NCBI GenBank assembly: GCA_029261065.1
Contig: JAJDCB010000030.1
Span: 196,876-260,875 of the forward strand
Source of the DNA: Candidatus Omnitrophota bacterium
GTDB taxonomy: Bacteria; Omnitrophota; Gorgyraeia; Zapsychrales; Zapsychraceae
Reading direction: 5' to 3'
DNA: 64,000 nt
Made by a program: the position numbers and the translations under genes. Below, in pieces: positions 1 through 62,067 of the stretch (its first letter is position 1; every line of letters begins with the position of its first letter). Under the pieces are notes generated by a model. The model was not told where the DNA came from and ran no database searches. It saw only the letters and a program-made list of their open reading frames with translations.

Positions 1-165
1 TTGGAAATTAGGAGATAAGAAAAATTCTCAGATGTATCATCGTGAAGCTGATTCTATTGATGCCACGAAAAAAGGGAGTCAGGGGAAGGGGAGTAAGAAA
101 GAGTAAAAGCACGAAATAAAGTTTTCTGAGAATTATTGTATTAAATATTAAATAAAGGGAAGTTT

Positions 166-606: not shown

Positions 607-704
607 GCTCAGATGGAGGTAACTCATGAATTTGCCCGAAGTATTCGCAAAGGCGTGTGTTAGCACAAGATAATGTTCAATAATGTTTCTAATAGGTCAG
701 GAGG

Positions 705-1937: not shown

Positions 1938-2498
1938 ATGTCTAGCGATACAATAAGTACCGATCGAAGTCGTTTATTAGAAATTTTAATTAAAGAAGCT
2001 TATTTTAAAGAAAAAATTATTCTCTCTTCAGGTAAAGAGAGTGATTATTATATTGATGCGCGGCGGGTGACGTTAAGTGCGGAAGGTGTTTATTTGATTG
2101 CAAAATTGATTCTTGATCATGTGAAAGATGATAACGTTGATGCTATTGGCGGACCAACACTTGGTGCTGATCCAATGGTAGGTGCTGTTGGTTCGTTAAG
2201 TTTTCAGAATCAAAGACCGGTACAAACTTTTATTATTCGCAAAGCTCCAAAAGCGCATGGGAAACAACAACAAATAGAAGGCCCTTCTATCAGTTCCGAT
2301 CAACGCATTGTCATCATCGATGATGTGGCCACTACAGGTAAAGCATTCTTAGAATCCTTAGATGTTCTCGATAAAATGGGGATTAAGCCGCTTAAGGCGA
2401 TATGCATTGTTGATCGCAATGAAGGCGCCAAAGAGGCTTTAGCCGCTCGCGGGTGTGAGCTGGTTTCCCTTTTCGACATTTCCGAAATCCACAAATGA
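1938..2498 (+). CDS. pyrE: orotate phosphoribosyltransferase
   Basis: type I PRTase PRPP-binding motif VIIDDVATTGKA; length 186 aa; overall OPRTase-like layout. Confidence 0.8.
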   Translation: MSSDTISTDRSRLLEILIKEAYFKEKIILSSGKESDYYIDARRVTLSAEGVYLIAKLILDHVKDDNVDAIGGPTLGADPMVGAVGSLSFQNQRPVQTFIIRKAPKAHGKQQQIEGPSISSDQRIVIIDDVATTGKAFLESLDVLDKMGIKPLKAICIVDRNEGAKEALAARGCELVSLFDISEIHK

Positions 2499-3823: not shown

Positions 3824-3844
3824 GGGGTGATTTCGGGCATGGGA

Positions 3845-3995
3845 TCCTCGCTGGAGTTTACCCCATGGATTCCCGCTTTTGCGGGAATGTCAGATGGGGA
3901 GGGGATGACAAATCCTTGTCATTCCCGTGAGTTTGTCATTCTCGAGAGCTTGTCATTCTCGCGAGTTTGTCATTCCCGCGAAAGCGGGAATCTAT
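3845..3995. repeat. REP-like element family A cluster (several GTCATTC units)
   Basis: GTCATTCCCGCGAAAGCGGGAATC plus degenerate GTCATTCTCG copies; inverted partner GGATTCCCGCTTTTGCGGGAATG. Confidence 0.85.
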
Positions 3996-4008: not shown

Positions 4009-4461
4009 ATGATGCTAAAATTAAAATACTACCTCACAGCAGCAATACTCCTTACCCTCAGCGCTTGCTCAAATCAATTAAGCAATAAAGTCTGCTTTGA
4101 AAAACAATGCATAGACGTTGAGGTTGTTACGAAACAAGAAGATGTCATGCGAGGTTTACAGGAACGGGAATCATTGCGAAAAAATTCTGGTATGTTGTTC
4201 GTGTTTCCTAAAAGGGGCAAACATTCCTTTTGGATGAAGGATACCTGGATTCCCTTAGATATGATTTGGTTGGATGCCTCTCAAAGAATTATATATATTC
4301 AAAACAATGTGCCACCTTGCAAAAATGATCCATGCCCATCTTATGGTCCTGATGGTGATTCTTTTTATGTGCTGGAAGTTAATACCGGCTACGTAAAGGA
4401 GTTAGGGTTAAAGGTAGGAGATCGAGCGGAATTTCATATTGTCGATGAGGCACAGTCTTAA
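4009..4461 (+). CDS. DUF192 family lipoprotein
   Basis: lipobox LSAC; conserved DUF192-like IPLDMIWLD...YVLEVNTGY; the ORF-track start at 3967 lies inside the repeat, so ATG 4009 is used. Confidence 0.65.
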   Translation: MMLKLKYYLTAAILLTLSACSNQLSNKVCFEKQCIDVEVVTKQEDVMRGLQERESLRKNSGMLFVFPKRGKHSFWMKDTWIPLDMIWLDASQRIIYIQNNVPPCKNDPCPSYGPDGDSFYVLEVNTGYVKELGLKVGDRAEFHIVDEAQS

Positions 4462-19846: not shown

Positions 19847-22039
19847 ATGTCAAATCCTAAACTAACCCTTATTAAATCGATTACCTTCTTATCGGCCTTT
19901 TTGATGTTTCAAATTGAGCTTATTATAGGAAAGATTTTTTTGCCAAATTTTGGCGGAAGTTTTGTCGTTTGGGGAGCCTGTGTCGTTTTTTTTCAAGCGG
20001 CATTGTTGTTAGGGTATATGTATTCCCATTGTGTCGTTCAAAAAATAGGTATATATAAATATCGTTATATTCATCTCATTTTATTAGGGCTGCCATTTTT
20101 GTTCTTTCCAGGAAAGCCGTTGGCGATGCGTTATGAGATTAGTACGCTTCCTATGGTTCTTGAAATATTTTTAAAGCTTATTTTTACCATTGGTCCAGCT
20201 TTTTTTGTGCTCTCAACGATGAGCATTATTTGGCAGGCATGGTTGTCACAATCCACTATTGAAGAGCGATCAAATCCGTATACTCTCTTTGCCGTTTCCA
20301 ATTTTGGCTCTTTTGCAGCTCTTCTTACATATCCTTTTTTTATAGAATCTTATTTAGATCTTTTTCAACAGCAACATATCTGGCGGTGGATGTATGTAGG
20401 AATGTTTTTTCTTCAGGCGCTGGCTTTATTTGTAGTGAATGTCGATAAAAAACTGGATAGCAAGCGTGAGAAGGTTAAGAAAGTCTCTCTCTCTAAAGGA
20501 ATGCCAATCTTAATTTATGGAGCTGCGGGTGTCATGATTTTTTTATCTGTCACAAGCATTATCACAGCCGAGATTGTACCCATGCCTTTGTTGTGGGTTC
20601 TACCGTTAACACTCTATTTGTTTTCTTTTGTTTTGATTTTTAAAAAGAAGTCCTGGGCTCCTGCGTGGATGGTTAAGCGTTTTGATGTGTTAGTAGGGTT
20701 TGCTGTTCTTTTTTATTTTTTTACACAGATGAAGGCCTTTCCTATTTTGTTTGAATTAGCTGTGCTTTTGATGATTACATTTTGGACATGTCTTTACTGT
20801 CAGTATCAGGTTTTTCGTCTTCGCCCTAAAGATTTAAGAAATTTAACATCCTTTTATTTGTATTTGGCTTTAGGTGGGTTCTTAGGAGGTGTTCTTGTGA
20901 CGTGGTTTGTTCCTTTGTTTTCGACGACATTTGTTGAATACTTCTTATCATTTTTTGTTATTTATTTGGCGGGTCTTAAGGATAAATCTTTACGATTAAA
21001 TAAATTTTATGTCGCTCGTCTTTGTCTTTATGTTCTTGCTATTCTTTTTGTCTGGCCTTTGGTGTTTAAGCAGTACAATTTTTGGGGAATGATTTTGATT
21101 ATTGCTGTGATGAGTTTTGCCTTTAAGGAATTAGCTCGGCATCGCTTTGGGATACTTAGCGTATTGTTGATTTTATCTTCTTCTTTAAATGTTCTGGAGC
21201 CGATTTGGAACAAGCAAGTCGACATTTATCGTGATCGTAATTACTATGGTATTAGCAAAATTTCAGAAGAAGAGGGGGTAAGGTATTTTCTTCATGGGGC
21301 AACAATTCACGGGGCGCAATTTTTAAACCCAAAAGGCCTCGATATTCCTTTAACTTATTTTTCATCCACGTCTCCGATTGGAGAAGTTATGCAATCCGAT
21401 AATTTTGATTTTAGAAAAATTGGTGTAATCGGTTTAGGTGTTGGGACGTTAGCTACATATTTAAATGATGGGGAACATCTAGATTTTTTTGAGTTGGATC
21501 CTGATGTTGAAAGTTTGGCGAAGAATTATTTTTCATATTTAAAGAACGCCAAAGGAAAGATTCAACATTTTACGGGTGATGCCCGAATTACTTTAGAAAA
21601 GATGCCGTTACAGAACTATCAATTGTTAGTAGCAGATGCCTTTAGCGGTGATGCCGTTCCTGTCCATTTGATAACAGAGGAGGCTATGCATCTTTATCAA
21701 AAACATTTAGCCCCGGAAGGGTTGGTGTTATTTAACATCACGAATCGCTATATTAATAATCAATACCCCATATTAAGCACGGCTCTTAGTACTGATGCTA
21801 AATTGTGTTATAAGGTTGCAAATTTTGATAGTGTTGTGTTTTTTTCATCCACTTGGGTTGCGGTCACATGGAATGATGAGGTTTATAAGACATTAACAGA
21901 AGAGATGGGGTGGTTAACAGTGGATAAAAATTTGGCAAAAAGGGTAAGAAAATGGAATGATCGATATACGAATATTCTACCTTATGTCAAATTTAAAGAA
22001 CTTGGCTATGCCCTTAAAAATTTTGATTTTTTAAGATGA
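19847..22039 (+). CDS. membrane-anchored spermidine synthase-like (PABS) protein
   Basis: ~12 TM segments then IGVIGLGVGTLATYL...FELDP...GDA...LLVADAFSGD (SAM-dependent aminopropyltransferase fold). Confidence 0.7.
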   Translation: MSNPKLTLIKSITFLSAFLMFQIELIIGKIFLPNFGGSFVVWGACVVFFQAALLLGYMYSHCVVQKIGIYKYRYIHLILLGLPFLFFPGKPLAMRYEISTLPMVLEIFLKLIFTIGPAFFVLSTMSIIWQAWLSQSTIEERSNPYTLFAVSNFGSFAALLTYPFFIESYLDLFQQQHIWRWMYVGMFFLQALALFVVNVDKKLDSKREKVKKVSLSKGMPILIYGAAGVMIFLSVTSIITAEIVPMPLLWVLPLTLYLFSFVLIFKKKSWAPAWMVKRFDVLVGFAVLFYFFTQMKAFPILFELAVLLMITFWTCLYCQYQVFRLRPKDLRNLTSFYLYLALGGFLGGVLVTWFVPLFSTTFVEYFLSFFVIYLAGLKDKSLRLNKFYVARLCLYVLAILFVWPLVFKQYNFWGMILIIAVMSFAFKELARHRFGILSVLLILSSSLNVLEPIWNKQVDIYRDRNYYGISKISEEEGVRYFLHGATIHGAQFLNPKGLDIPLTYFSSTSPIGEVMQSDNFDFRKIGVIGLGVGTLATYLNDGEHLDFFELDPDVESLAKNYFSYLKNAKGKIQHFTGDARITLEKMPLQNYQLLVADAFSGDAVPVHLITEEAMHLYQKHLAPEGLVLFNITNRYINNQYPILSTALSTDAKLCYKVANFDSVVFFSSTWVAVTWNDEVYKTLTEEMGWLTVDKNLAKRVRKWNDRYTNILPYVKFKELGYALKNFDFLR

Positions 22040-22126: not shown

Positions 22127-22542
22127 GGGGGTGACATGGTTTCGACTTGGGTTATCGGAGTTTGAGTGGCATGCGGAGGACGTCTGGTTGGCCTCCTAAA
22201 AAATCCAGGCACACAATAAACGCTAACGATGAAACGTTGACGTTTGCTAGCTTGACTAATTCAACAATGGACAGCGATGTTCCTGTTGAACCATCACTAG
22301 CAACAGCACCAGCCTTATCGGTCTAATTCACTGGTAAGCCCTCTTGTAGCAGGCCTGTGGGTTACAAGTGGAACAAGCAGGCTGGTCTTATAAATTTGCT
22401 TCATTTATAAGATAAGATTTAGAAGCTAGTTTCATTTACGTTTGTTTATTTAGAGAAGTGAAGCGAAATTAAAAATAAACTAAGCATGTAGAAGCTCTTA
22501 CAAAGGAACCAAAGGACCGGGGTTCGATTCCCCGCACCTCCA
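22127..22542 (+). ncRNA. ssrA: tmRNA (transfer-messenger RNA)
   Basis: 5' GGGGGTGACATGGTTTCGAC and 3' GGACCGGGGTTCGATTCCCCGCACCTCCA (T-arm + acceptor) match tmRNA ends; tag frame starts GCT AAC GAT GAA (ANDE...) at 22222, stop at 22324. Confidence 0.85.
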
Positions 22543-22683
22543 TTTAGTTGTAGTGCATCTCCACCCCATTGAGGTGCATAGGCTTATGATAGTATATTGT
22601 TTTAATTCTCGATTGGTGCCCATTTAGTGCCCAAAGTATCACATTTTTCTTGCATTCATTCTATTGACTATTATAATAAACCC

Positions 22684-27532: not shown

Positions 27533-29089
27533 TTATGGCTTAACCATCCGCAAAACAGTTTTACCCTCCTCACAAAAATCAATAGCATAAGAACTGACTC
27601 GCATGAAGATGAGGGGGAGTTTTTCACGATTTTTACATTGAACGCCTTCTCTTCCTCCAAAGGGATTTCTGTGGCCTACTTTGGCAATGGAGAAAGGGCC
27701 ACCGGTGTAGAGTTGCCAGGTTTGGTCGATCATATTTCCATTGATGTCCTGTTGATTAAAATGAGTGAAGTTAGGTTCTATGCCAAGAACATGAGTGACT
27801 TTTCCATAGGCGTCGTGAGTAAGAATTTCTTTGCGAATTTTTGTCCATTGGTCTTTTTTGTAAGATTCTTTTAATTGAGGCTTTCTCCAATAGGTGAGAC
27901 TGGTGGGTGGAAAAATAAGATATAACATTAATCCCGCCAAACACACGTAACCACCCCATTTCATTTCCCAGTTTTTTTTGATCACATCGCGTGCAAAATA
28001 ACTTAAAAAGAAAATAAACGGAAGTAACCCAGCCATCGCATAGCGACCAATCCACGTCTCAGGCCCCCAGGACCATTTGAAGTATTTAACGGAAAGAAGT
28101 AACATCAACGCAAGTTGGGCTAGGCCTAATCCCGCGACAATAAGAAGTTTTAATCGATCATTTCGATTTTTATTTTGAATAATAGTATAACCTATACAAA
28201 AAAGAAATAATCCTACCCAAAGCCAAATGTTTGGAATAAATAAATATTTGCTTAAACTTTGTAAGCTTAGCGAAATGGCTTCAGACGTGTTTGATGTTAT
28301 TTCTGTACGAAGCGCAGGTTTTGTCATTACGAAACGCAGGAATAGCCCTTCTATAATTCCAACGCCATAAACGAGAAGGAGGCAAGCACTTTTAAATAGG
28401 TCGTTTAATTTCTCAAGCGAAAGAGAAGGAATGCAATGGTGATTAGTCAGAACAAAAACAAAGACTTGGATAAACAAAGAGTAGGTCGAATAAATGTGTG
28501 CGGCTCCTGCAATAAGGACTGAAATACTCCAACACATAAGCAGGATGTGAGAGGCGAGCTTTGATTTATGTTCGCTTGTTAAGAGTAGCGTTAATAAACA
28601 CCAAGAAAGGGCGCTATGAGCAAAGCCGCTTGTATGAAATCTTAGCTCTGTTCCCAAATGAGAAGACATATAATTAATGGTGACCAATAACACCGTAATA
28701 AATGTTGCAAAGAGATTTGATCGAGAGAGGCGACGGCTGATAATAAAAACGCTTGTTATAAAGATGATGCTGTAAAGAGTAAGGGGAAGTCTTAAGATCA
28801 ATTCAACATGTTCCATAATACTATTTAAAGGCAAACTGGCCTTTAAGAGTTTTAGATAAGCCCAATACTCAACAAATGACCAAGGCATAGCAGCAATCAG
28901 ATCACGGAGGGCTACGTAGAAATAGGGAGAGAATGGTTTATGATTGGCCACATAGAGCATCAACGTTTCATCTTGCCAAAGAGGGGTGTACCAACTATAG
29001 AGAATGCGTCCAATGAGGGTGTGCAGGACGATAATAATAAAAGAAAGATAGATAAGGAGCGAGCTGAAGTGAGTTTGGGGGCGTTTCAT
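27533..29089 (-). CDS. polytopic membrane protein (possible glycosyltransferase-like)
   Basis: 518 aa, >10 TM segments. Confidence 0.5.
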   Translation of the reverse strand: MKRPQTHFSSLLIYLSFIIIVLHTLIGRILYSWYTPLWQDETLMLYVANHKPFSPYFYVALRDLIAAMPWSFVEYWAYLKLLKASLPLNSIMEHVELILRLPLTLYSIIFITSVFIISRRLSRSNLFATFITVLLVTINYMSSHLGTELRFHTSGFAHSALSWCLLTLLLTSEHKSKLASHILLMCWSISVLIAGAAHIYSTYSLFIQVFVFVLTNHHCIPSLSLEKLNDLFKSACLLLVYGVGIIEGLFLRFVMTKPALRTEITSNTSEAISLSLQSLSKYLFIPNIWLWVGLFLFCIGYTIIQNKNRNDRLKLLIVAGLGLAQLALMLLLSVKYFKWSWGPETWIGRYAMAGLLPFIFFLSYFARDVIKKNWEMKWGGYVCLAGLMLYLIFPPTSLTYWRKPQLKESYKKDQWTKIRKEILTHDAYGKVTHVLGIEPNFTHFNQQDINGNMIDQTWQLYTGGPFSIAKVGHRNPFGGREGVQCKNREKLPLIFMRVSSYAIDFCEEGKTVLRMVKP

Positions 29090-39781: not shown

Positions 39782-40537
39782 ATGAATCCACCTAACACAA
39801 TAGATAAAGAAACTCCTCTATTTATAACTGTATCAAAGTTTGCTGGTAAAGCGATTATGGAATTTGATATGATTGAAGATCAAGACAAAATCGTTGTTGC
39901 TGTTTCTGGAGGAAAGGACAGCTTATCCTTACTCCATATTTTACGTCACAGACAAAAAGTCGCGCCTATCCAATTTGATGTGTGTGCGGTTCATGTCGAT
40001 TTCGAATTATCCGATTTTGATCCTCAACCTTTAGTGGAATATTTTAAAGCGCATGGCTTTTCTTATAGGGTTGAGAAAGTAGCTTCCCTAAAGGGACAAA
40101 AATATGATGAGATTGATTGTTTCTCGTGGTCACGCGCGCGACGAAAAGCGTTGTTTGAGCTGGCTAACAAGCAAGGTTTTACTAAGATTGCCTTTGGGCA
40201 TCACATGGATGATATTGCCGAAACCATTGTCTTAAATCAATTTTATCGTGGAGAAATTGGTGCGATGAAACCCAAGCAAGAATTATTTGATGGAAAAATC
40301 GTCCTTATTCGCCCCTTAGCGTATGTTCGTGAAGATTGGATGCGGGATTTAGCTGTTGAGTTAAAAATTGACTCGATGGGCCAATCGAAATGTTCGTTTG
40401 ATGACACATCGCATCGTATGAAGATAAAGAAAATGCTTCGCGAGTTTGAAAATGATAATACACCTGTTGTTAAAAATATTTTCAATAGTCTAAGTAAGGT
40501 CCGCGAAGACTATCTTATTGATAGAAAGGATAAATAA
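39782..40537 (+). CDS. ttcA: PP-loop ATPase, TtcA-like tRNA thiolase family
   Basis: VAVSGGKDSLSLLHIL (SGGxDS PP-loop). Confidence 0.65.
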   Translation: MNPPNTIDKETPLFITVSKFAGKAIMEFDMIEDQDKIVVAVSGGKDSLSLLHILRHRQKVAPIQFDVCAVHVDFELSDFDPQPLVEYFKAHGFSYRVEKVASLKGQKYDEIDCFSWSRARRKALFELANKQGFTKIAFGHHMDDIAETIVLNQFYRGEIGAMKPKQELFDGKIVLIRPLAYVREDWMRDLAVELKIDSMGQSKCSFDDTSHRMKIKKMLREFENDNTPVVKNIFNSLSKVREDYLIDRKDK

Positions 40538-41143
40538 ATGGATAATATTATTAAGTATTGGTTTCACGATGTAAGTGATGAGCGGCCAATTGATAAGAAG
40601 GGGATGCCGGTTAAGATGTGGTTTATGAAAGATAAAGAGATTGATGTTGAAATCACTAAGAAATTTGAACAAGATATTATTAAGGCTAACGAAGGTGAGT
40701 ATAAAGATTGGGAAAAAACGGCAAGAGGATCTTTGGCTTTGATTCTTTTGTTCGATCAATTTACAAGAAATATTTATCGCAATACAAAGAGGATGTTTGC
40801 TTACGATCATTTGGCCTGTGATTTAAGTGTAAGGTGTGCAGACGCTCATATCGATCAAGATTTGTCGCTTATTCAACGTGTCTTTATGTATATGCCTTTT
40901 ATGCACGCAGAAGATCTTCGTTTGCAACAGTTATGTATTTCATCTTTTGAGGGATTAGTTAAAGATTCAAATGAAAAAAGTCCTTATAATACTTCTTATT
41001 ACGAAAGTAATTTGTTGTTTGCTAAAAAGCATAGTGAGATTATTGAACAATTTGGACGATTTCCTCATCGGAATCAAATCCTTGGGCGAGAGTCAACGAG
41101 TGAAGAGTTAGAATTTCTTAATAAACCAGGATCTTCTTTTTAG
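40538..41143 (+). CDS. DUF924 family protein
   Basis: YWF...LALILLFDQFTRNIYR is the conserved DUF924 core. Confidence 0.65.
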   Translation: MDNIIKYWFHDVSDERPIDKKGMPVKMWFMKDKEIDVEITKKFEQDIIKANEGEYKDWEKTARGSLALILLFDQFTRNIYRNTKRMFAYDHLACDLSVRCADAHIDQDLSLIQRVFMYMPFMHAEDLRLQQLCISSFEGLVKDSNEKSPYNTSYYESNLLFAKKHSEIIEQFGRFPHRNQILGRESTSEELEFLNKPGSSF

Positions 41144-41911: not shown

Positions 41912-42212
41912 AAATAAACTATTTAAGTTTGTGCATTGTTATTGCTGGTAAAATAAGCTACACTTAAAATAGTAGTATGAGTGTTAATGAAAAAGGCAAA
42001 CTTCAGCCATTATTTATGGCTGGTGCGTCAAGAGTTTTGGCGCATGGGGTAACCCAAGGACGTCCCACATTTCTAGAAATTGAAGTATGTGGGACCCCGT
42101 CTAAAGAGGCGGGGCAAAGCATTAGGGTCCTATTAAGGATAGCCTGGCCGCCGTAACAATGAGAAAGTATTTTCTCGGCCTATCCTTAATAAAAATTAGG
42201 ATAGGTTTTTTT

Positions 42213-42686
42213 ATGGAAAAACTGAAGATTAAAATTTATACAAAAGGTTTTACACTCGTTGAACTCCTCGTTGTTGTTGCCATTCTTAGCTTTATTCTTA
42301 CAGGTATGATTGGGTTGTTTATTCAGACTTCGACTCATGGAAATATGTCAACCAATAAGACAATAGCCTTAAACGAAGCTCAGGGTATTCTTGAGGCTGT
42401 AAGAAATCATGATTTTGATAGTATTGTTACAGACTATAGTTTTGGCGGAAGCCCAGGAGATACGTTTGCGCTAACAAATCCAACAGGCATGGGAAAAATT
42501 TATATCAATAGTGCGGACCCAGATTTACTCACTCTTCAGGTCGTTGTGAGTTGGCAAGATAAATATAATCGTATTATCGGTGAAGATACTGATTTAGATG
42601 GTGTTCTAGATGGCGGAGAAGATATCAATGGAAATACCCAACTGGACTCACCGGTATCTTTAATGAGCATGATTACAAGAAGGTAA
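42213..42686 (+). CDS. prepilin-type (type IV pilin / pseudopilin) protein
   Basis: KGFTLVELLVVVAILSFIL class III signal/N-methylation motif. Confidence 0.75.
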   Translation: MEKLKIKIYTKGFTLVELLVVVAILSFILTGMIGLFIQTSTHGNMSTNKTIALNEAQGILEAVRNHDFDSIVTDYSFGGSPGDTFALTNPTGMGKIYINSADPDLLTLQVVVSWQDKYNRIIGEDTDLDGVLDGGEDINGNTQLDSPVSLMSMITRR

Positions 42687-42690
42687 AGAT

Positions 42691-43245
42691 ATGAGACACA
42701 GTATAACGAAAAAAATTCTGCAATCCCTGAATCAAAATTCTGGTTTTACGATTGTGGAAACATTTATCACCATGGCCATTTTTACGATTGTGATGACAGG
42801 TTTATATGCGACGGTCGCGGTGGGGGAAAGTTCTTGGCAAGTCAATCAGGCTAATGTTGAATTACAACAGCAATTGCGACAAGGAATGGGATGGATGATT
42901 AACGATTTAAGATCTTCTGGAAATAGTTCTATCGTCAACGTTCCAGCCAATGATACATTGTATACAACGATAACTTTTAAAGTGCCTACAGGTGTGACAG
43001 CAGGTTCTCTTGTTTGGGCGGCAAATACCATTCAATTTGTTTTAGGAGGCAGCGGAGGAACGGATTTACAGCGTATTGAAGGAGGAGTGACAACCGTCAT
43101 AGCTCAGAACATTCAAACATTACAATTTCGTCGTAGTTCCTCAGCATCTGATACGTTAGAAGTTTTTATGACAGCACAAAGAACGACAGCAAAAGGAAAT
43201 GTTATGGCGGCACCATTAGATTTTTCTATTCAATTAAGAAATTAA
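42691..43245 (+). CDS. prepilin-type minor pilin
   Basis: NSGFTIVETFITMAIFTIV prepilin motif. Confidence 0.7.
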   Translation: MRHSITKKILQSLNQNSGFTIVETFITMAIFTIVMTGLYATVAVGESSWQVNQANVELQQQLRQGMGWMINDLRSSGNSSIVNVPANDTLYTTITFKVPTGVTAGSLVWAANTIQFVLGGSGGTDLQRIEGGVTTVIAQNIQTLQFRRSSSASDTLEVFMTAQRTTAKGNVMAAPLDFSIQLRN

Positions 43246-43257
43246 GAGGGTGATGCG

Positions 43258-44766
43258 ATGAAAAAACAATTATTAAAGAGGCTAACGGATACAAAGGGAA
43301 GCGCATTTCTGATTTCGTATTTTGCTATTGTTGTCCTTCTTGGTTTGGGAGCTACATTTTTACTGTTAGTGACGGGCGAATCTCGTGTTTCAGAAAGACA
43401 ACGATTAACAACAGTGGCTTTTCACATTGCTGAGGCAGGTATTGAACGCGGGCTTAATGAATTAAGAGAAGACTTTGTTAATGATACATCTCCAAGTTGG
43501 GCTGATGGCCTTATTAATACTTACACGATTGGTCCAAACACTGGCACTTATTATACGATTCCTTTTTCATCAACAGTTTTTAATTCAGGATCTTACGTTG
43601 TTGAGTTATTAAATGTATCAGGTGCCGTTGATGATATTTGGTTGCGTTCGACAGGAATCATTAGTGGTGTCACGCATACCATTGATGTTTACGTGCGGAT
43701 GGTGAGTTTGTCTCCGTGGGAATATGCGATATTTGCGGGAGCTGGGGCATCAGGTGCCATGGTTAACGGGAATGTCGACATTCGTGGATCTGTTATCGTT
43801 TTGGGGTCAGGACTGTCACCAGGCGATTATGCCATTGATTTAGGTGGGACGGCAGAGCTCGTTGGAAATAATTACAATGGTCTTTCTGGGACGATTACGG
43901 CAAAAGTTCCAGCTTTGCCTACAGTGAGTTTTGGCGGGGAGACTGTTGAAACATTGAATGCGACATTGCGTGTTAAACAAGGTTTGGTTGGTTTAAGCGG
44001 GTCTTCTACAGTAGGGGAGTCGAATGCGACAGGAAATGCTGTTAAAGAAACTGTTGATGGTGTTTTTGTTACGGAAGGTTTTGGCGGAAGTCAAGGAACC
44101 TCGGGTGTGCATTCCGATAATGGTGTGACAGAAGCCTATGATCTTGGCGGAGCTGTTACATTTCCCAGTTTAAGTGATCCTTATCCTGGTCATGCGAGTT
44201 ATCAAGCGTATTTACAATCGACGGGTTATACTTTAACAGCGGCTGAGGCAGCTGTTTTGAGTAGTGGTATCAAGCCAACATCAAGTTTTTCTTTTGGAGA
44301 TGCTAATGGAAGTATTAGTGTAGATGGTAGTGGAAATTTAGCGATTGATGGAGTTGTTTATGTGGATAGTGGTGCTGATGTGAATTTTGAAAAAGATGGA
44401 TCTAATAAAACAATTAATTATACAGGAACGGGATCTTTGTTGGTCACAGGGAACGTGCAAATTGATGTTAATTTGTATACGGCTGGTAATAATTCTTTTC
44501 CTAACAATATTATGGGAATTATGACACCTAATAATATTGGTTTTAACGAAGCTAATATTGATGTCATGGGCATTTTTTACGCTGAAAATTCTGTTGTGGT
44601 TCAAAAACAGACAGATATTATGGGAACGATTGTTTCTAATTACTTTGATATGGGAACCAATGTCCCATCTATATTTCAAGTCCCCGATACCGCCAACAAT
44701 CTTCCTCCAGGGATGATTGGAGGAAATGCGACATGGTATATGGTTGTCGGATGGCTTAAATCATAG
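43258..44766 (+). CDS. PilX-like pilus assembly/minor pilin protein
   Basis: N-terminus KGSAFLISYFAIVVLLGLGATFLLLVTGESRVSERQ resembles PilX_N; Gly/Thr/Ser-rich beta-rich C-terminus. Confidence 0.6.
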   Translation: MKKQLLKRLTDTKGSAFLISYFAIVVLLGLGATFLLLVTGESRVSERQRLTTVAFHIAEAGIERGLNELREDFVNDTSPSWADGLINTYTIGPNTGTYYTIPFSSTVFNSGSYVVELLNVSGAVDDIWLRSTGIISGVTHTIDVYVRMVSLSPWEYAIFAGAGASGAMVNGNVDIRGSVIVLGSGLSPGDYAIDLGGTAELVGNNYNGLSGTITAKVPALPTVSFGGETVETLNATLRVKQGLVGLSGSSTVGESNATGNAVKETVDGVFVTEGFGGSQGTSGVHSDNGVTEAYDLGGAVTFPSLSDPYPGHASYQAYLQSTGYTLTAAEAAVLSSGIKPTSSFSFGDANGSISVDGSGNLAIDGVVYVDSGADVNFEKDGSNKTINYTGTGSLLVTGNVQIDVNLYTAGNNSFPNNIMGIMTPNNIGFNEANIDVMGIFYAENSVVVQKQTDIMGTIVSNYFDMGTNVPSIFQVPDTANNLPPGMIGGNATWYMVVGWLKS

Positions 44767-46856: not shown

Positions 46857-47777
46857 ATGGATTCTGATTTCGAAGGTCTTGCGTATACTATTATACTTTT
46901 AGTTTTAGGTGTTTTTGGCTTTTTTTGGGGATTCAAGCGCTTTAAGAGAAAGCGGCTCATTGAAAATACGCCAACTTCGACGATTCGGGGTATGGCTATG
47001 GGGCTTGTTGAGATTCTGGGAAAGGCTCGTAAAACGCCTTTGATTCATAGTCCTTTGATTAAAGAAAAATGCGTCTACTATCAATATCAGATTGAAGAGT
47101 ATCGCTCTGATGGGGAAGATAGTAGTTGGTATACCCTTGTTCGGGGAAATAGCAAAAATGCTCCTTTTCGAATCGAAGATGAAACTGGGGTCGTTTCTAT
47201 TATTCCGAAAAGGTCAGAAGTTGTGATACCAAAAACATACACATTGACGACAGGTTTGGGCGTTTCTATTCCGCAAAGTATTAAGCAGTTTATGATAGAT
47301 AGAAAAATAAAATATCGAGGATTATTCGGAAGTAAAAAACTACGTTTTACGGAATGGCGTATTCATAGTGAAGAAACGGTTTATATTTTAGGAACGGCTC
47401 AAAAAGAAAATGATCTTGTCAATGTTCAGAAAATGAAAATGGACAGTTACCTTTCAGATTTAGCAACTAATCCAGAAGCGTTAAATGCTATTGATAAAAA
47501 TAAGGATGGAGATGTTGATCAGAAAGAATGGGATGCGGCTGTTAAACAAGTTGAGAAAGAACTTATAGAAGAGGAAGGCAAGTCTGTCCATCTATCTCAA
47601 TTAAATGATGTATATATCTCTTGGAGTGATGTTGATAAAGTGTTTATGATTTCCAATCATCCGCAGAAAGATTTAACTAAGAAATTGTTTTGGCAGTCGA
47701 TGCTTGGAATTTATGGTGGTTCTGCGTTAGCGGTTGCGATGTTAGTGTTGCTATTACATTATTTTCAAATATTTTAA
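46857..47777 (+). CDS. membrane protein with EF-hand Ca-binding loop
   Basis: N- and C-terminal TM helices; DKNKDGDVDQKE canonical EF-hand loop. Confidence 0.55.
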   Translation: MDSDFEGLAYTIILLVLGVFGFFWGFKRFKRKRLIENTPTSTIRGMAMGLVEILGKARKTPLIHSPLIKEKCVYYQYQIEEYRSDGEDSSWYTLVRGNSKNAPFRIEDETGVVSIIPKRSEVVIPKTYTLTTGLGVSIPQSIKQFMIDRKIKYRGLFGSKKLRFTEWRIHSEETVYILGTAQKENDLVNVQKMKMDSYLSDLATNPEALNAIDKNKDGDVDQKEWDAAVKQVEKELIEEEGKSVHLSQLNDVYISWSDVDKVFMISNHPQKDLTKKLFWQSMLGIYGGSALAVAMLVLLLHYFQIF

Positions 47778-47852
47778 TTTAGGAATTTCGAAGCTTTAAC
47801 GAAATTCCAGGTTGGCTTAATACCTTAGATAATTGAGTCCAGAGGTTCATAC
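47777..47852 (+). repeat. ~85-nt conserved element with perfect hairpin GGAATTTCG-N-CGAAATTCC (copy 1)
   Basis: second copy at 62127-62217 has the same orientation and a shared GAGTCCAGA...TTCATAC tail. Confidence 0.7.
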
Positions 47853-47876
47853 TTTTAATTAAAGAAGGAGATGAGA

Positions 47877-48458
47877 ATGGGAACAGTGATTGTTGTTTTA
47901 GCAGTATTATTTTTTATTGTTGTCGGTTTAATTATGTACGGCGTCTCGATCTATAATGGCTTGATTAGTCTTTTTCATAATGTGGATAAGGCTTGGTCGA
48001 ATATTGATGTGTTGCTTAAGCAGCGGCATGATGAGATTCCGAAGTTGATTAAGGTGTGTGAAGGGTATATGAAGCATGAACGCGATACGCTTGAAAGTAT
48101 TACTAAAGCGCGTACAAGTTGTATAAACGCGGGAAGTGTTGGGGAATCAGCGCAATCAGAGGGTATGCTAACTCAGGCTTTGAAATCTTTATTTGCAGTG
48201 GCGGAAAATTATCCGGATCTTAAGGCGAATACAGGGTTTTTACAGCTTCAGGATCGGGTTAGTTATTTGGAAAGTCAAATCGCTGATCGACGTGAAATGT
48301 ATAACGATTCCACAAATAACTACAATATCCGGATTCATCAAATTCCAGATATGTTTGTCGCGGGCATGATGAATATGAAGGATAAAGAATTGTTTAAGGT
48401 CTCAGAGACAGATCGTCAGGATGTGGATATTAAATTTAATTTTCCAGATGGTAAATAG
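47877..48458 (+). CDS. lemA: LemA family protein
   Basis: N-terminal TM then LemA-like ...NIDVLLKQRHDEIPKL...AENYPDLKAN. Confidence 0.75.
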   Translation: MGTVIVVLAVLFFIVVGLIMYGVSIYNGLISLFHNVDKAWSNIDVLLKQRHDEIPKLIKVCEGYMKHERDTLESITKARTSCINAGSVGESAQSEGMLTQALKSLFAVAENYPDLKANTGFLQLQDRVSYLESQIADRREMYNDSTNNYNIRIHQIPDMFVAGMMNMKDKELFKVSETDRQDVDIKFNFPDGK

Positions 48459-48524: not shown

Positions 48525-48625
48525 AGGTATTTGGTTAATACCCCGCCTTTGGCGGGGTCAATTCGTGCTTCTAGTTTATGCCTCCTTTGGTCGCATAAAC
48601 TAAGCTTTCATTGAGGAGATTCAAA

Positions 48626-49105
48626 GTGCAAAGGTCACATACGGTTTTAAAAAAAGCGATCAATAAGGTTGGGGTTAAGGCATTGGCTGCGAAATTGGGG
48701 GTGTCTCAGACGCTTGTTTATAAATGGTGTCAGCCCTCAGTGCATGAAGAGAGTCCAGATCTCTATGATGTGAGTGGGGCGCAAAATCCGTTGGATCGGT
48801 TAAGAAAGGTTTATGAATATACCAAAGATCCTGAAATCATTAATTGGATTTGTAAATTAGCTGATGGTTATTATGTGAAGAACCCTACTCTAAATAAGAA
48901 AAGCCATGAAACGGTTGTGGTTAAAAACACACAAAAGCTTATTAAAGAATTTTCAGAAACATTGGCAGCGATTTCAACATCTTACAGCGTTGATAAGAAA
49001 ATTACGGCTAAAGAGGCTAAGGTGATTCGTAAGGAATGGGAGGATTTGAAGAGGATTGGAGAAGGATTTGTGAAGGCGTGTGAGATGGGGAAGTTTGATA
49101 AGTAG
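48626..49105 (+). CDS. lambda CII-like HTH DNA-binding protein
   Basis: ALAAKLGVSQTLVYKWC resembles the CII HTH (AEKLGVDKSQISRWK); GTG start with GAGGAG RBS. Confidence 0.5.
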   Translation: MQRSHTVLKKAINKVGVKALAAKLGVSQTLVYKWCQPSVHEESPDLYDVSGAQNPLDRLRKVYEYTKDPEIINWICKLADGYYVKNPTLNKKSHETVVVKNTQKLIKEFSETLAAISTSYSVDKKITAKEAKVIRKEWEDLKRIGEGFVKACEMGKFDK

Positions 49106-57414: not shown

Positions 57415-57542
57415 CCTTTTTTAGAAAATTATATAATTGTGGTATCATGAATTAGGGTAGATAAAGACTTATCTACCCTTTTTTTGTTCCGTCAAACGGG
57501 AGAACCTCGGCGTAGCCCAAAGGGCGAAGACGGGTAAATAAA

Positions 57543-60500
57543 ATGAAAGAATTAAAAGATTCCACACATTGGTTTCAATCCAATATTGTAAAAAAGCTTG
57601 AGAAGTTAGAAATGCAATATTGTAAATTGCTTTCCCAGTTTAATCATGAAGTTTTTCTAAATTTAGAACGCGTTGACTCATTAAAAAATATATACTCTCA
57701 AATCTCTCAATACCTTACTCGATTACAAGTCTTTCCAAAAGAACAAGATGTCAAATTTGTGGGAATTATAAAGCGATATTCAAATCATTTTGATTCATTG
57801 CATCAAAATAATTTGCGCTGGATCTATGCGTATTGCGAATTAAGATGGCCTAGTGATGATTATTTATCAAGAAAATTTAAAAAGAAATTAAAGCAAATTT
57901 ATCCAGATGTTGTATTACGGGCTAATAAGTTTTGGTTAAGCGTAGAAACCCTAAAGAAAGAGGATGACATAAATCACTACAAATTTAGTAGGGTCTTAAG
58001 TATTAAAAAAATGAGAGATTCATACGATTATGGTTCCCCTATTTGGCATAAATGGCATAAGCAATTGGTTGTTATGGTTTTTCGTCTAATGTCTGCGAAT
58101 CTTAAGAATAACAGACATCAAATGGATGGCTTGTTTAAAGAAAGCATCTATCAGGAAGTATTAAGTAGTGATGTGCTTAACGGTAAAGAGAATGTGAGCT
58201 CACAGCGTATATCGGGGTTGTTTAATACTGGTTCTCTTACTAATAATTTAATTAAATCTAGGGTGAATCATTGGTTTAAAGGTTACAAAAAATTTAGCGG
58301 AGAGGATGAAAAGCTTATTCATGCGCATGTTCATGGCTTTATAAAAGATGAATTGCAGAAAGGGGAAAGAAATTATTGGAGAAATAAAATTTTTCATTTA
58401 GCAACGTTTTCATTTATTGTTGCTGTGTTAGCTTTAAGTTTATATCAGATTCGAGTTCCACAGGCAATGGCAATGCATACAACCCAGTTTATCAATACTA
58501 TCAAATCTTTTCGAATTTTTACCAAGAAAGAAAATAAAATGCAGCAGTTTTTTCTAAATGAGATGATTACAATGGAATCTGATTATACTCAAGAAGACAT
58601 TCTCTCAAACCTAAAAATATTTAGCGAGGAGGGTTGGTATCTAAAAGAGGGTGGATATTATTATTTTGCTCAGGAAATATTAAAAGGAATGTTGGTATTA
58701 TGGGCAGATGGTCAGTCCAATGATGAGCTTAATGAAGAAGTGATTAAGGCCGCTAACCTTTTAAATGCTGAATTAGGCTCTAATCTAAGCAATATTCTTG
58801 CACTTTATCAAAAAATGTTAATGAGAGAGTCAAAATTAAGAGAAAATATGTTGGAGCTTAGAAGACTTTTCATTAAACAAGGCGTGTATCCATTTATGTT
58901 CCTTGTGCTTAATGATTATTCACCATTTATCTTTATGTATCCTGAGAAAATTATAAATGAATATATTTTTGAAGATGATTATGCCCAAGTTTTGGGTATG
59001 AATGTCGAATATTATTCAAAACTCGAGCATTGGCCTCCAAAAGCGTACGTTCTTAAACCCGACTCCTATCCGTTTGAAAATAAAGCTGGTTATTTTGAGG
59101 GTGAATTTGCTGTTGTTTTTGAAAGTTTTGCAGCTAACGTAAGATGGACCGCTTGGCACGAGCTTGGCCATGTTATTGAGAACTTTAAATATGAGCATGA
59201 ATCAAAACGTTTGTTTGATAATGTCGAGCTAAATGCCATGATTTTTCCTGTGATTTTTGATAAAGATGCAAGGGCCTATCTGACACATTATGTGGTGCCA
59301 TTGGCAGATAGAAAGATGGCGAAGAGTTATTATGGGCAGGCGGCCAAGGGGATTTTAAATGGATTAGTTATTTATGAAAAGTTGCATAATGGTCGTGAGT
59401 TAACACCTCTATTAACGAATCGAATGGAAGAAGATCGTAAAGAAGTTATTAAGAATTACATTTTATCATTAACGTCCAAGGAAATTCGTAAAATCGGGTA
59501 TACGATGTATTTTCATCCAGATCGTTATTTGTATACCACAGAGGCAGGAAAGTACCGGGGGATTGTAACAAATGCAGAAGAAATAATTTTTGGAGCACAT
59601 TCTTCTCCAGAACAAGATGTGGTCATGGCCAGTTCTGGATTAGGAGGTTTCCGACTTGGTTCAAAAATGATTAGAGATGGGGATGGAAGCTCAACGAATT
59701 GGGCCATGCAACAACTCGCTGCTTTTATTGATGCTATTATTGTATTTATTTTATTTGAATCTAGTTTTGTCTTCATGCATATTTTAGGAACGCCCATTCG
59801 TATAAAGAAATTTAAAGGAAGACGCGTTGTTTTAATTTTGAATAACATGTTTAAAAAGAATCAAAGTTCAGATGGTCATGGTTTAGGAGAAGAGGTCGGT
59901 TTAAGGCAATTGTTGACAAAGATTTATGAAAGTCACGGCAATTTTGATCAATCTTTAATAGCAGACATCCAAGCATTCAAACTGACAGCAAATAGTCGAG
60001 ACCTTTTATTGTTTCAGTTGGGCTTAACCTTTGCATCAGAAAATCCAAAAATTTCTGAAATTAAAAATCCATTTCATCTTATTCAATTTTATCTTCCCTT
60101 TTTGGGTCCGTATATTGCTCGTTCTAAATGGTTATATGGAAAACAAAAAGCGTTTGATGAAAGGGAAGTATTTAATAAAAGGTTAGAGCATTTCTTGGTG
60201 TCGCTTGAGAAAGATAAATCTATAGAGGAGGTTTCTAATCAATATAATGAATTGATCAAGCCTTACGCGCAGCCTGGTAAGGAGATGGGGGATAGTCATC
60301 AAATTTTAAAAAATATTAAATTGCTTGAGAAAACGATGTCAGAATTCTTTTTACCGAATAAAGATTCCAGTAGGAAAATAAATGGAGTCAGGTCGAATAA
60401 GAATGGAGAGTCTTTGTTGAAGCGTAATGCAGGAGATATAGATTTTGATCGATTAGAAGTTTATACGCCGGGAGATGATGTGCGAGAAATCGACTGGAAT

Positions 60501-61070
60501 GTTACAGCGCGATCCGCAAAGAATGATGTGATCGTACGAAAGCGAGTAGGACATGAATCGTTTGAAATGAGTTTGTTGTTGGATATGTCTGTACTAAGTG
60601 ATGAAACTTTATTGGAGAGTTGGGTGCAAGATTATTTGATGACGCTCAAATTGCTGGGAAAAGAAAAGAGAATGCAGAAAATCATGATTGTCATGCCCTA
60701 CGGAAAAGTCATTCAAAGAGCCATAAAGGTCAATACTCATCTTGGATTTAGACAAACGGCATTAAAAACTTTTTCTAGATTAAAAGAATATATTTATGAT
60801 GAACTAGAAGGGGAATATCTTGAATCTATCAATGGGCTTAAATTTTATGATGAAGAAGAAAATAATCAATATTTGAAACGCATCAAATTATGCCGATTTA
60901 AGGGAAGGGGAGCGTCGTTGCAAGCGAATGCATTGCGTGGACATCATCAGAATATATTTTTAGTGGGGGTTATCCCCCATAAACGGCTTGACTATGTAAA
61001 GTCATTGGGGCGAACTAACAGTATTTATTTTTGGCATGAACAAAATGCTCAATTAAATAAAATTCCATAA
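57543..61070 (+). CDS. large multidomain protein: N-terminal unknown region, HExxH motif, TM helices, C-terminal DUF58-like domain
   Basis: WHELGHVIENF; DUF58 hallmark YTPGDDVREIDWNVTARS; TM segments near aa 285-305 and 715-740. Confidence 0.6.
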   Translation: MKELKDSTHWFQSNIVKKLEKLEMQYCKLLSQFNHEVFLNLERVDSLKNIYSQISQYLTRLQVFPKEQDVKFVGIIKRYSNHFDSLHQNNLRWIYAYCELRWPSDDYLSRKFKKKLKQIYPDVVLRANKFWLSVETLKKEDDINHYKFSRVLSIKKMRDSYDYGSPIWHKWHKQLVVMVFRLMSANLKNNRHQMDGLFKESIYQEVLSSDVLNGKENVSSQRISGLFNTGSLTNNLIKSRVNHWFKGYKKFSGEDEKLIHAHVHGFIKDELQKGERNYWRNKIFHLATFSFIVAVLALSLYQIRVPQAMAMHTTQFINTIKSFRIFTKKENKMQQFFLNEMITMESDYTQEDILSNLKIFSEEGWYLKEGGYYYFAQEILKGMLVLWADGQSNDELNEEVIKAANLLNAELGSNLSNILALYQKMLMRESKLRENMLELRRLFIKQGVYPFMFLVLNDYSPFIFMYPEKIINEYIFEDDYAQVLGMNVEYYSKLEHWPPKAYVLKPDSYPFENKAGYFEGEFAVVFESFAANVRWTAWHELGHVIENFKYEHESKRLFDNVELNAMIFPVIFDKDARAYLTHYVVPLADRKMAKSYYGQAAKGILNGLVIYEKLHNGRELTPLLTNRMEEDRKEVIKNYILSLTSKEIRKIGYTMYFHPDRYLYTTEAGKYRGIVTNAEEIIFGAHSSPEQDVVMASSGLGGFRLGSKMIRDGDGSSTNWAMQQLAAFIDAIIVFILFESSFVFMHILGTPIRIKKFKGRRVVLILNNMFKKNQSSDGHGLGEEVGLRQLLTKIYESHGNFDQSLIADIQAFKLTANSRDLLLFQLGLTFASENPKISEIKNPFHLIQFYLPFLGPYIARSKWLYGKQKAFDEREVFNKRLEHFLVSLEKDKSIEEVSNQYNELIKPYAQPGKEMGDSHQILKNIKLLEKTMSEFFLPNKDSSRKINGVRSNKNGESLLKRNAGDIDFDRLEVYTPGDDVREIDWNVTARSAKNDVIVRKRVGHESFEMSLLLDMSVLSDETLLESWVQDYLMTLKLLGKEKRMQKIMIVMPYGKVIQRAIKVNTHLGFRQTALKTFSRLKEYIYDELEGEYLESINGLKFYDEEENNQYLKRIKLCRFKGRGASLQANALRGHHQNIFLVGVIPHKRLDYVKSLGRTNSIYFWHEQNAQLNKIP

Positions 61071-61086: not shown

Positions 61087-61548
61087 ATGTCAAAGGCAAC
61101 GTTTGCCGCTGGATGTTTTTGGGGGGTTGAGGAGGAGTTTCGTCAATTAAAAGGCGTGCTCAAAACCCAAGTAGGATATACAGGTGGGCATCTAGAAAAA
61201 CCTACGTATAGGGATGTCTGTACAGGCGCAACTGGACATGCCGAGGCTGTTGAGATTGAATTTGATGACAATATAATATCCTATAAAGAGTTATTAGACT
61301 TTTTTTGGAAAATTCATAATCCTACAACCTTAAATCAACAAGGCCCGGATGTTGGTTCTCAGTATCGTTCAGCTATTTTTACACACAATGAAGAGCAGGT
61401 GAAAATTGCCCAATTATCAAAAGAAGAGCTAAACAATGAAGGTTATTTTCCTGAACCAATAGTTTCTGAGATTTGTGATGTTACAGAATTTTTTCCAGCA
61501 GAAACTTATCATCAGCAGTATGTTGCCAAGCAAAGAGGTGAGTTGTAA
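61087..61548 (+). CDS. msrA: peptide methionine sulfoxide reductase A
   Basis: GCFWGVEEEF...GYTGG MsrA active-site motif. Confidence 0.9.
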   Translation: MSKATFAAGCFWGVEEEFRQLKGVLKTQVGYTGGHLEKPTYRDVCTGATGHAEAVEIEFDDNIISYKELLDFFWKIHNPTTLNQQGPDVGSQYRSAIFTHNEEQVKIAQLSKEELNNEGYFPEPIVSEICDVTEFFPAETYHQQYVAKQRGEL

Positions 61549-61707: not shown

Positions 61708-62067
61708 ATGAGAAAAGAACTTATTGTTTTGGTCTTGTTATCAACAGGTGTTTTTTTTACCGGGACTTCTGAGGCGAGCAAAAAAAGTTCCAAAAAGGAT
61801 GATTATCATTATGGTGTTGGTATAGGCCACGACGGTTTTTATTTTCACGTAAATACTCATCATCCTAAATACTATCCCCGTTATAAAAAGAGATATCATT
61901 ATCCTGAGGGTAGGTATCATCGCAGACATCATCGTAGGGCTTATCGAAAATATAAACGTGTCAGAAGGCATCATCGTAGACACCATCGTATAGATTATTA
62001 CGAAGAGCCTGTTTATCACAATGGTCATTATCACTATTATGACTATGACTATGATTGTGAAAGATAA
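61708..62067 (+). CDS. secreted His/Tyr/Arg-rich low-complexity protein
   Basis: signal peptide then HRRHHRRAYRKYKRVRRHHRRHHRIDYY...YHYYDYDYDCER. Confidence 0.55.
   Translation: MRKELIVLVLLSTGVFFTGTSEASKKSSKKDDYHYGVGIGHDGFYFHVNTHHPKYYPRYKKRYHYPEGRYHRRHHRRAYRKYKRVRRHHRRHHRIDYYEEPVYHNGHYHYYDYDYDCER

Follow-up and report, generated by a model that had tools for sequence, protein, structure and literature searches.

An Omnitrophota membrane protein joining a zincin-like HExxH domain to DUF58, and the moxR gene found next door in its sister clade

Background

DUF58 is among the most widespread bacterial domains without an assigned function, and the role of MoxR ATPases in most genomes is unknown. 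In a 64,000-nucleotide stretch of the genome of a Candidatus Omnitrophota bacterium (contig JAJDCB010000030.1; hereafter the window), one open reading frame (ORF) encodes a protein, P0001, that ends in DUF58 and carries much else besides. A preliminary description made from the letters alone listed a 1175-residue product with a WHELGH motif, membrane segments and a C-terminal DUF58, and called the architecture unfamiliar. What kind of protein is P0001, and does it belong with a MoxR ATPase, as ordinary DUF58 proteins do?

All 3 of the listed features were found in the translation. We identified in P0001 two hydrophobic helices flanking a large zincin-like domain that is built around the HExxH motif, followed by a helical middle domain and a full DUF58 domain; the domain, its position between the helices and the existence of homologues had all escaped the preliminary description. 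The architecture that it called unfamiliar is real. P0001 may well be a membrane-anchored zinc metallopeptidase coupled via a cytoplasmic DUF58 to a MoxR AAA+ ATPase, a reading to which we give slightly better than even weight and in which the peptidase activity, the substrate, the topology and the physical coupling to MoxR are what we infer.

A single gene with full-length relatives

The gene (57543..61070, forward strand; Table 1) is a single intact ATG-started ORF encoding 1175 aa, and its own frame gives the peak codon-usage correlation with the other window genes in 4 of 4 consecutive segments. An exhaustive HMMER search of 1.84 billion cluster representatives returned 77 proteins at E <= 1e-3, approximately 22 of which are full-length (1130-1224 aa) and 23-35% identical. 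These homologues were assembled independently, in data from ENA, JGI, Logan, and NCBI, and align with P0001 collinearly, in one stretch from residue ~14 to residue ~1165. Frameshifted genes run together, which the preliminary description named as what could undo it, and a chimeric assembly were both rejected on the uninterrupted in-frame coding signal and the collinear homologues; nothing was found in favour of either, and we regard the chance that the ORF is such an artefact as vanishingly small.

A word-indexed protein search, run both with the single sequence and with a 20-sequence profile, returned P0001 itself only; because the family was found by exhaustive HMMER, this null result reflects the index and not orphan status. 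The homologue search that the preliminary description had proposed thus yielded a rare but conserved family, which we aligned as 20 sequences (A1); counts of invariant residues below refer to these 20 unless the giant proteins described later are included. Two family loci come from species-representative genomes, one an Omnitrophota metagenome-assembled genome (MAG) and the other a Planctomycetales MAG, and the other members are from metagenome assemblies. These two were the true family loci among 80 kept from a profile scan of genome contigs, the remaining 78 being ordinary DUF58 loci drawn in via the DDxRxIDW pattern.

In a neighbour-joining tree, the window protein groups with P0002, P0005, P0010, P0009, and P0022 in one clade (hereafter the window clade), whereas all members with an adjacent moxR gene fall in the other (the sister clade). 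Window-clade proteins are without an insertion of ~25 residues that precedes helix 2.

A zincin-like domain around the HExxH motif

The sole Pfam match of P0001 is DUF58 (PF01882), and an NCBIfam scan of the protein gave no match. The region between the two helices, at residues ~335-700, corresponds to no Pfam family in P0001 or in any of 32 relatives and to none in NCBIfam. An AlphaFold2 (AF2) model of this domain, built on a 32-sequence alignment, reached a predicted local distance difference test score (pLDDT) of 89.8 and a predicted template modelling score of 0.88. From its N-terminus, which is helical, the model runs through a long beta hairpin, the short strands of the GYFEGE motif, a helix at 533-553 that holds HELGH, and a helix at 562-572. 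WHELGH occupies residues 538-543, and P0001 has no HExxH other than the one at 539.

The conserved residues of the domain cluster around this motif. H539, E540, and H543 are invariant in 20/20 family members and stay so in 32/32 sequences of the set that adds giant-protein fragments, and W535-T536 is invariant in the family alignment. In the strand motif just upstream, Y509, P510, G516, F518, E519, and G520 show no variation within the family and a conservation of at least 90% once the giant-protein fragments are added; the same holds for N560 and E562 downstream. E562 opens the predicted helix 562-572, which comes after the HExxH helix. The spacing HExxH-x18-E with the Glu on the following helix is the gluzincin arrangement, and E562 fits the third-ligand Glu of gluzincins, which sits about 18-25 residues or more downstream on the next helix, at the level of sequence and predicted secondary structure. 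HEXXH-X18-E is the signature of family M1, with the same spacing as in the zincin-like domain.

We searched for relatives of known structure or family, with little return. Foldseek of the domain model against the Protein Data Bank (PDB) gave no significant match, the best being ZMPSTE24 (M48; E 0.06, TM about 0.15). A PDB profile search of the domain was likewise without a significant match, M3 oligopeptidase A being the sole match with A3 (E 0.33) and the top match with A4 (E 0.059), and a PDB sequence search with P0001 alone gave none. In the oligopeptidase A alignment the shared pattern reads T-x-HE-x-GH ... N-[IV]-E-x-x-A-x-x-x-P. The Glu that we take to be the M3 zinc ligand pairs there with Leu567, so the zinc ligand in the present domain would have to be E562. 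None of the peptidase models of Pfam or NCBIfam was matched by P0001, and sequence and profile comparisons tied it significantly to none of the defined peptidase families.

The domain thus resembles the gluzincins of clan MA(E) (M1, M3, M4, M48) in having HExxH on one helix and Glu on the next, and its top PDB matches, non-significant as they are, belong to M3 and M48. The conserved Gly/Glu strand upstream of HELGH recalls the GxMEN strand of M1, as a resemblance only. The domain differs from gluzincins in that its ~365 residues include a large helical N-terminal part without an identified counterpart. The zincin assignment is well supported by conservation and by the modelled architecture, and homology does not prove it; the domain is probably a new, uncatalogued family of zinc peptidases, its known members all stemming from MAGs or metagenome assemblies.

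The HExxH motif could instead be incidental, or the domain a pseudo-enzyme, with P0001 serving as a structural or scaffolding membrane protein. The want of significant similarity to any characterised peptidase family is what such a reading has in its favour, whereas the invariance of HExxH and of the Glu at 23-35% identity and in two wholly different protein contexts argues against an incidental motif; we consider it highly improbable.

Flanking helices and predicted topology

The membrane segments of P0001 resolve, in a Kyte-Doolittle (KD) profile (19-residue means >2), into two strongly hydrophobic helices of 19-23 residues, placed on either side of the zincin-like domain. Helix 2 is followed by a conserved basic stretch, GxPxRxRKFxGR, and F735, R753, and G759 are invariant in this part of the alignment. 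Averaged over the 20 aligned members, the number of Lys and Arg residues (K+R) per 15 residues is 4.55 before helix 1 and 2.4 after it, and 1.8 before helix 2 and 4.45 after it. By the positive-inside rule, this bias at both helices would place the N-terminus inside, the zincin-like loop outside and the C-terminus inside. The topology that we infer from it predicts a cytoplasmic N-terminus, an extracytoplasmic zincin-like loop, and a helical domain and DUF58 that return to the cytoplasm.

The N-terminal domain has E23, Y79, and G247-Y248 (within 'DWxxGY') as its invariant residues. Pfam scans of the N-terminal, central and middle segments of P0001 at permissive thresholds returned only noise. 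The full-length AF2 model has a mean pLDDT of 78, and Foldseek of this model against the PDB found nothing significant.

A full DUF58 domain at the C-terminus

Between helix 2 and DUF58 lies the helical middle domain, in which H845, F849, P852, G855, P856, R860, Q868, and F871 are invariant; the sub-alignment from the second transmembrane (TM) helix to LPFLGPY was too variable for search patterns. The DUF58 call of the preliminary description, made on a motif, held up in profile searches. P0001 clears the PF01882 gathering cut-off of 23.4 bits with a score of 32.3 (E 7e-8), over profile positions 5-46 of 216 only, and 20 of 32 relatives also match the model. We further compared the family C-terminus by hhalign with an alignment of 60 ordinary DUF58 proteins of ~300 aa, taken from the profile-scanned species-representative loci, and obtained 99.0% probability (E 8.5e-18) over 175 columns, covering aa 957-1147 of P0001. 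An alignment of this length means that the whole DUF58 domain is present, and not its signature alone.

P0001 reads YTPGDDVREIDWNVTARS at aa 974-991, within and just beyond the signature, and F1101-Y1102..E1106 is also invariant in the DUF58 part. The AF2 model has alternating beta and alpha elements over aa 1008-1173, and the matches of the full-length model to the vWA-containing chains 6fpz and 3hrz in Foldseek were far from significant. Where ordinary DUF58 proteins have a DxSxS-like motif, the family consensus reads LLLDxR, and P0001 itself LLLDMSVLS.

Ordinary DUF58 proteins (~300 aa, in operons of MRP-subfamily MoxR and of the Bat/aerotolerance type) are therefore alike in the signature and in the vWA-like remainder, as the hhalign result has it, but in P0001 the domain takes up just ~220 residues at the end of a 1175-residue chain, the DxSxS-like motif has changed, and the window is without an adjacent MoxR.

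MoxR adjacency divides the family

That DUF58 normally goes with MoxR, as the preliminary description had stated, is borne out by the ordinary loci, where a MoxR-like gene was present in the fetched flank at 72 of 78 loci, and at 49 of 51 among those of at least 15 kb. In the sister clade of the present family, moxR starts within ~30 nt of the stop codon at 6/6 distinct loci with a known downstream flank (L001/L090, L002/L091, L083 with P0003, L085 with P0006, L093 with P0008, and L098). The MoxR encoded there has 331 aa with AAA_3 (E 5e-62) and AAA_lid_2, and its gene is the sole neighbour common to the sister-clade loci. Overall, moxR lies directly downstream in about half of the relatives. 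At L085 (1393-4880), two genes precede the family gene, one for a VWA protein of 550 aa and one for a protein of 506 aa with DUF11/CARDB repeats, an arrangement that recalls Bat-type aerotolerance operons and was not seen at the other family loci.

The window clade differs. No adjacent moxR was found at 4/4 known loci (the window, P0002, P0005, and P0010), and their neighbours vary: msrA; a methyltransferase and a NUDIX gene; TerC; and a toxin-antitoxin pair. Within the window, msrA sits where the sister clade has moxR, tblastn with the MoxR of a relative gave no match at E <= 10 in the whole 64 kb, and Pfam scans of the larger ORFs showed ordinary chromosomal genes. The lack of an adjacent AAA+ gene, as first described, is thus correct, and the wider claim that there is no MoxR partner stands, as to gene adjacency, for the window clade and fails for the family, given moxR in the sister clade and the occurrence of the zincin-like domain in giant proteins with AAA_5 and vWA domains.

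These neighbourhoods bear on a second explanation, in which P0001 would be a stand-alone membrane zinc metallopeptidase of a clade that lost the MoxR link, and DUF58 would serve regulation, oligomerisation, or the binding of a substrate or partner without an ATPase; in one possible variant, DUF58 could sense a cytoplasmic signal that gates an outward-facing protease. The missing neighbour at all 4 window-clade loci with known flanks, the diversity of what stands there in its place, and the degenerate MIDAS-like motif are in line with it. But the DUF58 signature is no less strictly invariant in the window clade than among the MoxR-adjacent proteins, a sign that the interaction is unchanged, and the flanks seen are short (the window shows only 2.9 kb downstream of the P0001 ORF), so that moxR could lie elsewhere in the genome. 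We consider a stand-alone peptidase unlikely, though it is the main rival to the reading that we favour.

The same domain in giant midasin-like proteins

A hidden Markov model of the central domain also matches inside proteins of 1,300-6,900 aa, and HExxH is intact in every complete copy. Pfam matches mark these giants as midasin-like. P0032 has AAA_5 modules as far as residue 1699, followed by the zincin-like domain (1822-2206) and a VWA domain (2324-2478), and P0039 has a midasin AAA lid at 2687-2791, AAA_5 at 2966-3096, the zincin-like domain at 3212-3622 and VWA at 3759-3905. P0049, a contig-truncated fragment, has AAA_5, the zincin-like domain and VWA_2. The fusion of AAA_5, zincin-like and vWA domains in these 3 proteins is an independent covalent tie of the domain to MoxR-clade ATPases and vWA; together with the fusion to DUF58 next to moxR, the domain has two independent ties to such ATPases. 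Two hydrophobic helices flank the domain in all family members of ~1.15-1.2 kaa and in P0030, and P0029 has the upstream helix only, whereas the AAA_5/vWA giants have no hydrophobic helix near it.

Other giants vary in their ends. P0029 and P0030 end in DUF58 and not in VWA. In P0038, a metagenomic giant of 4492 aa, the zincin-like domain (2678-3046) stands in a chain with long N-terminal HEAT/Arm repeats and AAA_5 modules, and the C-terminus has a SAM-methyltransferase domain (4195-4352).

The AAA_5/vWA giants place the domain between the AAA ring and vWA, at the position of the midasin linker, and this placement counts in favour of a chaperone or maturation module over a degradation module. 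In such a module, comparable to NorQ/NorD, CbbQ/CbbO, CoxD/E, and the chelatases, the pair of MoxR and vWA-like protein would remodel a client or insert a metal, and the zincin-like domain would be either that client, to be loaded with zinc or activated, or a metal-binding module without proteolytic function. MoxR-vWA systems are indeed known as chaperones of cofactor insertion and remodelling (PMC7159879, PMC12067865). Against it, the general-base Glu of HExxH, the ligands and the GYFEGE motif, which looks like a substrate-binding strand, are all invariant, as would be expected of a working hydrolase, and we find the chaperone explanation distinctly improbable.

A proposed membrane peptidase coupled to MoxR

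According to the reading that we favour, of a peptidase coupled to MoxR, P0001 would be a two-pass inner-membrane protein whose loop between the helices is a catalytically competent peptidase of gluzincin type (H539-E540-x-x-H543 + E562). The DUF58 fused to it would act as a docking or adaptor module for a MoxR hexamer, which in turn may control, assemble or feed the peptidase, and in the window clade the moxR gene would lie elsewhere in the genome. The whole would be a zincin counterpart of the module of MoxR, vWA (or DUF58), and YebA/TgpA, for which a role in ATP-dependent protein processing near the membrane has been proposed. The observations behind it are the domain make-up, the conserved residues of catalytic type, the conserved helices on both sides, the full DUF58, moxR beside the gene in relatives, and the zincin-like domain fused to AAA_5 and vWA in giants.

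Several points weigh against this reading. There is no moxR in the 64-kb window or beside P0002, P0005, and P0010, so that the MoxR coupling of P0001 itself is drawn from homology alone. The central domain had no significant match to any peptidase family, and no superposition on a zincin was obtained. The MIDAS-like DxSxS motif has given way to LLLDxR in the family consensus, which makes metal-dependent ligand binding by the vWA-like part doubtful. Further, the predicted topology puts the membrane between the peptidase, outside, and DUF58 and MoxR, inside. With protease and ATPase so separated, a simple FtsH-like model of unfolding and threading cannot work; either the coupling is regulatory or conformational, or the topology prediction is wrong. 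The zincin-like domain of the giants is soluble, and presumably cytoplasmic.

A bolder proposal takes the membrane family and the giants together as a new class of AAA+-coupled protease, composed of an ATPase of the MoxR/midasin clade, a vWA-like adaptor, and a new gluzincin, in which cytoplasmic MoxR, through DUF58 and the helical domains, would send force or a conformational change through the two TM helices and thereby switch an extracytoplasmic protease. We regard it as rather unlikely. If true, it would mean that a protease outside the cytoplasm is under ATP-dependent control from across the membrane, which would set the system apart from FtsH, Lon, Clp, and HslUV.

Comparison with known systems

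The nearest precedent is the MoxR-vWA-YebA operon, in which YebA is a TM-anchored transglutaminase-like (TGL) peptidase; published work takes the operon to encode a membrane-proximal degradation system (PMC3495828), and it is listed among the known MoxR-vWA couplings (PMC7159879). Bifidobacterial clusters of MoxR, DUF58, and transglutaminase have been compared with the mycobacterial moxR1 operon (PMC12067865). Such MoxR-vWA/DUF58-YebA/TgpA modules, including the bifidobacterial PFNA cluster and the moxR1 operon, share with the present family a MoxR-proper ATPase (AAA_3; adjacent in the sister clade), a vWA-like or DUF58 component and a TM-anchored domain of peptidase type. They differ in that the catalytic domain here is of the zincin-like HExxH kind and not papain-fold, with no Transglut_core or TGL match in any member, and in that DUF58 is fused to the peptidase-bearing membrane protein and is not a separate protein of ~300 aa. 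Further, the unit comprises two genes in the sister clade and one in the window, the window clade being without an adjacent moxR.

FtsH, an AAA+ domain fused to an M41 zincin, offers a similar logic of a membrane-anchored zinc protease with an AAA+ motor, and there too two TM helices flank an extracytoplasmic domain. In FtsH, however, AAA+ and protease are both cytoplasmic and in one chain, whereas here any ATPase is of the MoxR clade and comes as a protein of its own, a vWA-like adaptor stands between, and the protease loop is predicted to be outside.

The midasin-like giants, with tandem AAA_5, a midasin AAA lid, and a C-terminal vWA, are alike in having the zincin-like domain, HExxH intact, just before a domain of vWA type. 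Unlike P0001, they are chains of 2,000-6,900 aa that are soluble around the domain, have AAA+ fused to it, and end in a canonical VWA and not in DUF58. P0001 is without an AAA domain by Pfam, and the zincin-like domain is the only part that the two share.

Surroundings of the gene in the window

Upstream of the P0001 ORF, a strong terminator-like hairpin separates it from the gene for a glycine-zipper lipoprotein, which suggests that the ORF starts its own transcription unit. Downstream follows msrA, which is not a conserved neighbour, as the window-clade relatives have other genes at this place; a functional tie between P0001 and msrA was rejected since msrA adjoins no other family member. 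A reading of the locus as a defence system was also dropped, as P0001, the MoxR of a relative, and P0049 matched 0 families in PADLOC. Just past msrA, a 119-aa ORF (61708-62067, forward strand) has a signal-peptide-like N-terminus and a body extremely rich in His, Arg, and Tyr (HHRRHHRRAYRKYKRVRRHHRRHHR...), with no Pfam match.

A TtcA/ATP_bind_3-like gene and a gene of ~200 aa, the second called DUF924, lie directly upstream of P0002 (L081/L082; L081 1506-2958). Their counterparts in the window (39782-41143; a TtcA/ATP_bind_3-like gene and a 201-aa ORF) stand ~16 kb upstream of the P0001 ORF, with a type-IV-pilin-like cluster and SOD-like, GIDE/LemA, PLD, and porin genes in between. This placement suggests kinship between the organism of the window and that of L081, along with an insertion or rearrangement.

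Within that interval, 3 consecutive ORFs of 175, 184, and 502 aa (42159-44766, forward strand) have hydrophobic leaders that, judged by eye, resemble those of prepilins ('GFTLVELLVVVAI', 'GFTIVETFITMAI'), which suggests a pseudopilin or type IV pilin-like cluster. A membrane protein with a GIDE domain and an EF-hand-like segment, followed by a LemA-family protein (46857-48458, forward strand), appears to form with it a recurrent pair that has no known function. In surroundings that are otherwise chromosomal-looking, Phage_CP76 (phage regulatory protein CII family) matches a 164-aa ORF (48611-49105, forward strand) at E 1.3e-7.

Farther upstream, Rfam identified a full-length tmRNA at 22127-22545 on the forward strand (RF00023, 179.8 bits, model positions 1-374), in conflict with ARAGORN, which found no tRNA or tmRNA gene in the same window. 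A 442-aa ORF (2495-3823, forward strand) combines a Maf-like nucleotide pyrophosphatase (aa 3-186) with Peptidase_M48 (aa 248-424) in an unusual fusion. Two large ORFs, of 730 aa (19847-22039, forward strand) and 518 aa (27533-29089, reverse strand), had no Pfam match at E <= 1e-5.

Table 1. Features of the P0001 locus, in window coordinates, with the basis of each assignment
Feature	Coordinates	Residues of P0001	Strand	Basis
Terminator-like hairpin, 11-bp stem then T-tract, TTTTTTTG	57454..57479		+	Between the upstream lipoprotein gene and the P0001 ORF
Complete gene, multidomain membrane protein P0001	57543..61070	1-1175	+	ORF list and translation, in-frame coding signal, ~22 collinear full-length homologues
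N-terminal all-helical domain, predicted cytoplasmic	57543..58382	1-280	+	AF2 model helical, pLDDT mostly 80-94
Hydrophobic helix 1, predicted transmembrane	58389..58457	283-305	+	KD mean 2.08; in 20/20 aligned members
Zincin-like (gluzincin-type) domain, predicted extracytoplasmic	58545..59642	~335-700	+	AF2 model of the domain, conservation
Conserved strand motif YPF..GYFEGE, just upstream of the putative active-site helix	59067..59105	509-521	+	Predicted strands 516-518 and 522-526
HELGH, putative zinc-binding/catalytic motif	59157..59171	539-543	+	Within helix 533-553
N560-V-E562, putative third zinc ligand Glu	59220..59228	560-562	+	HExxH-x18-E; E562 at +19 from H543
Hydrophobic helix 2, predicted transmembrane	59706..59777	722-745	+	KD mean 2.21; in all members
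Helical middle domain with 'LPFLGPYLAR' motif, predicted cytoplasmic	59790..60362	750-940	+	pLDDT 80-95; no Pfam match
DUF58 domain, signature and divergent vWA-like alpha/beta part	60411..61067	957-1175	+	Pfam, hhalign, AF2
DUF58 signature, FDRLEVYTPGDDVREIDWNVTAR	60444..60512	968-990	+	F968, Y974, D979, D984, W985, T988, R990 invariant in the family
msrA (peptide methionine sulfoxide reductase)	61087..61548		+	Pfam PMSR, E 6e-65; starts 17 nt past the P0001 stop codon

Implications

The components of P0001 are each of a known kind, and the logic of MoxR, a vWA-type protein, and a membrane peptidase has precedent. In the searchable literature we found no account of a zincin fused to DUF58, nor of one placed between AAA_5 and vWA. 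The family covalently joins DUF58 to a recognisable catalytic domain, and the giants join that same domain to AAA_5 and vWA. Together they would provide a second, unrelated peptidase example, after the transglutaminase-like YebA/TgpA, for the proposal that MoxR-vWA modules serve peptidases, and the zincin-DUF58 protein with its MoxR makes a compact, directly testable two-gene system.

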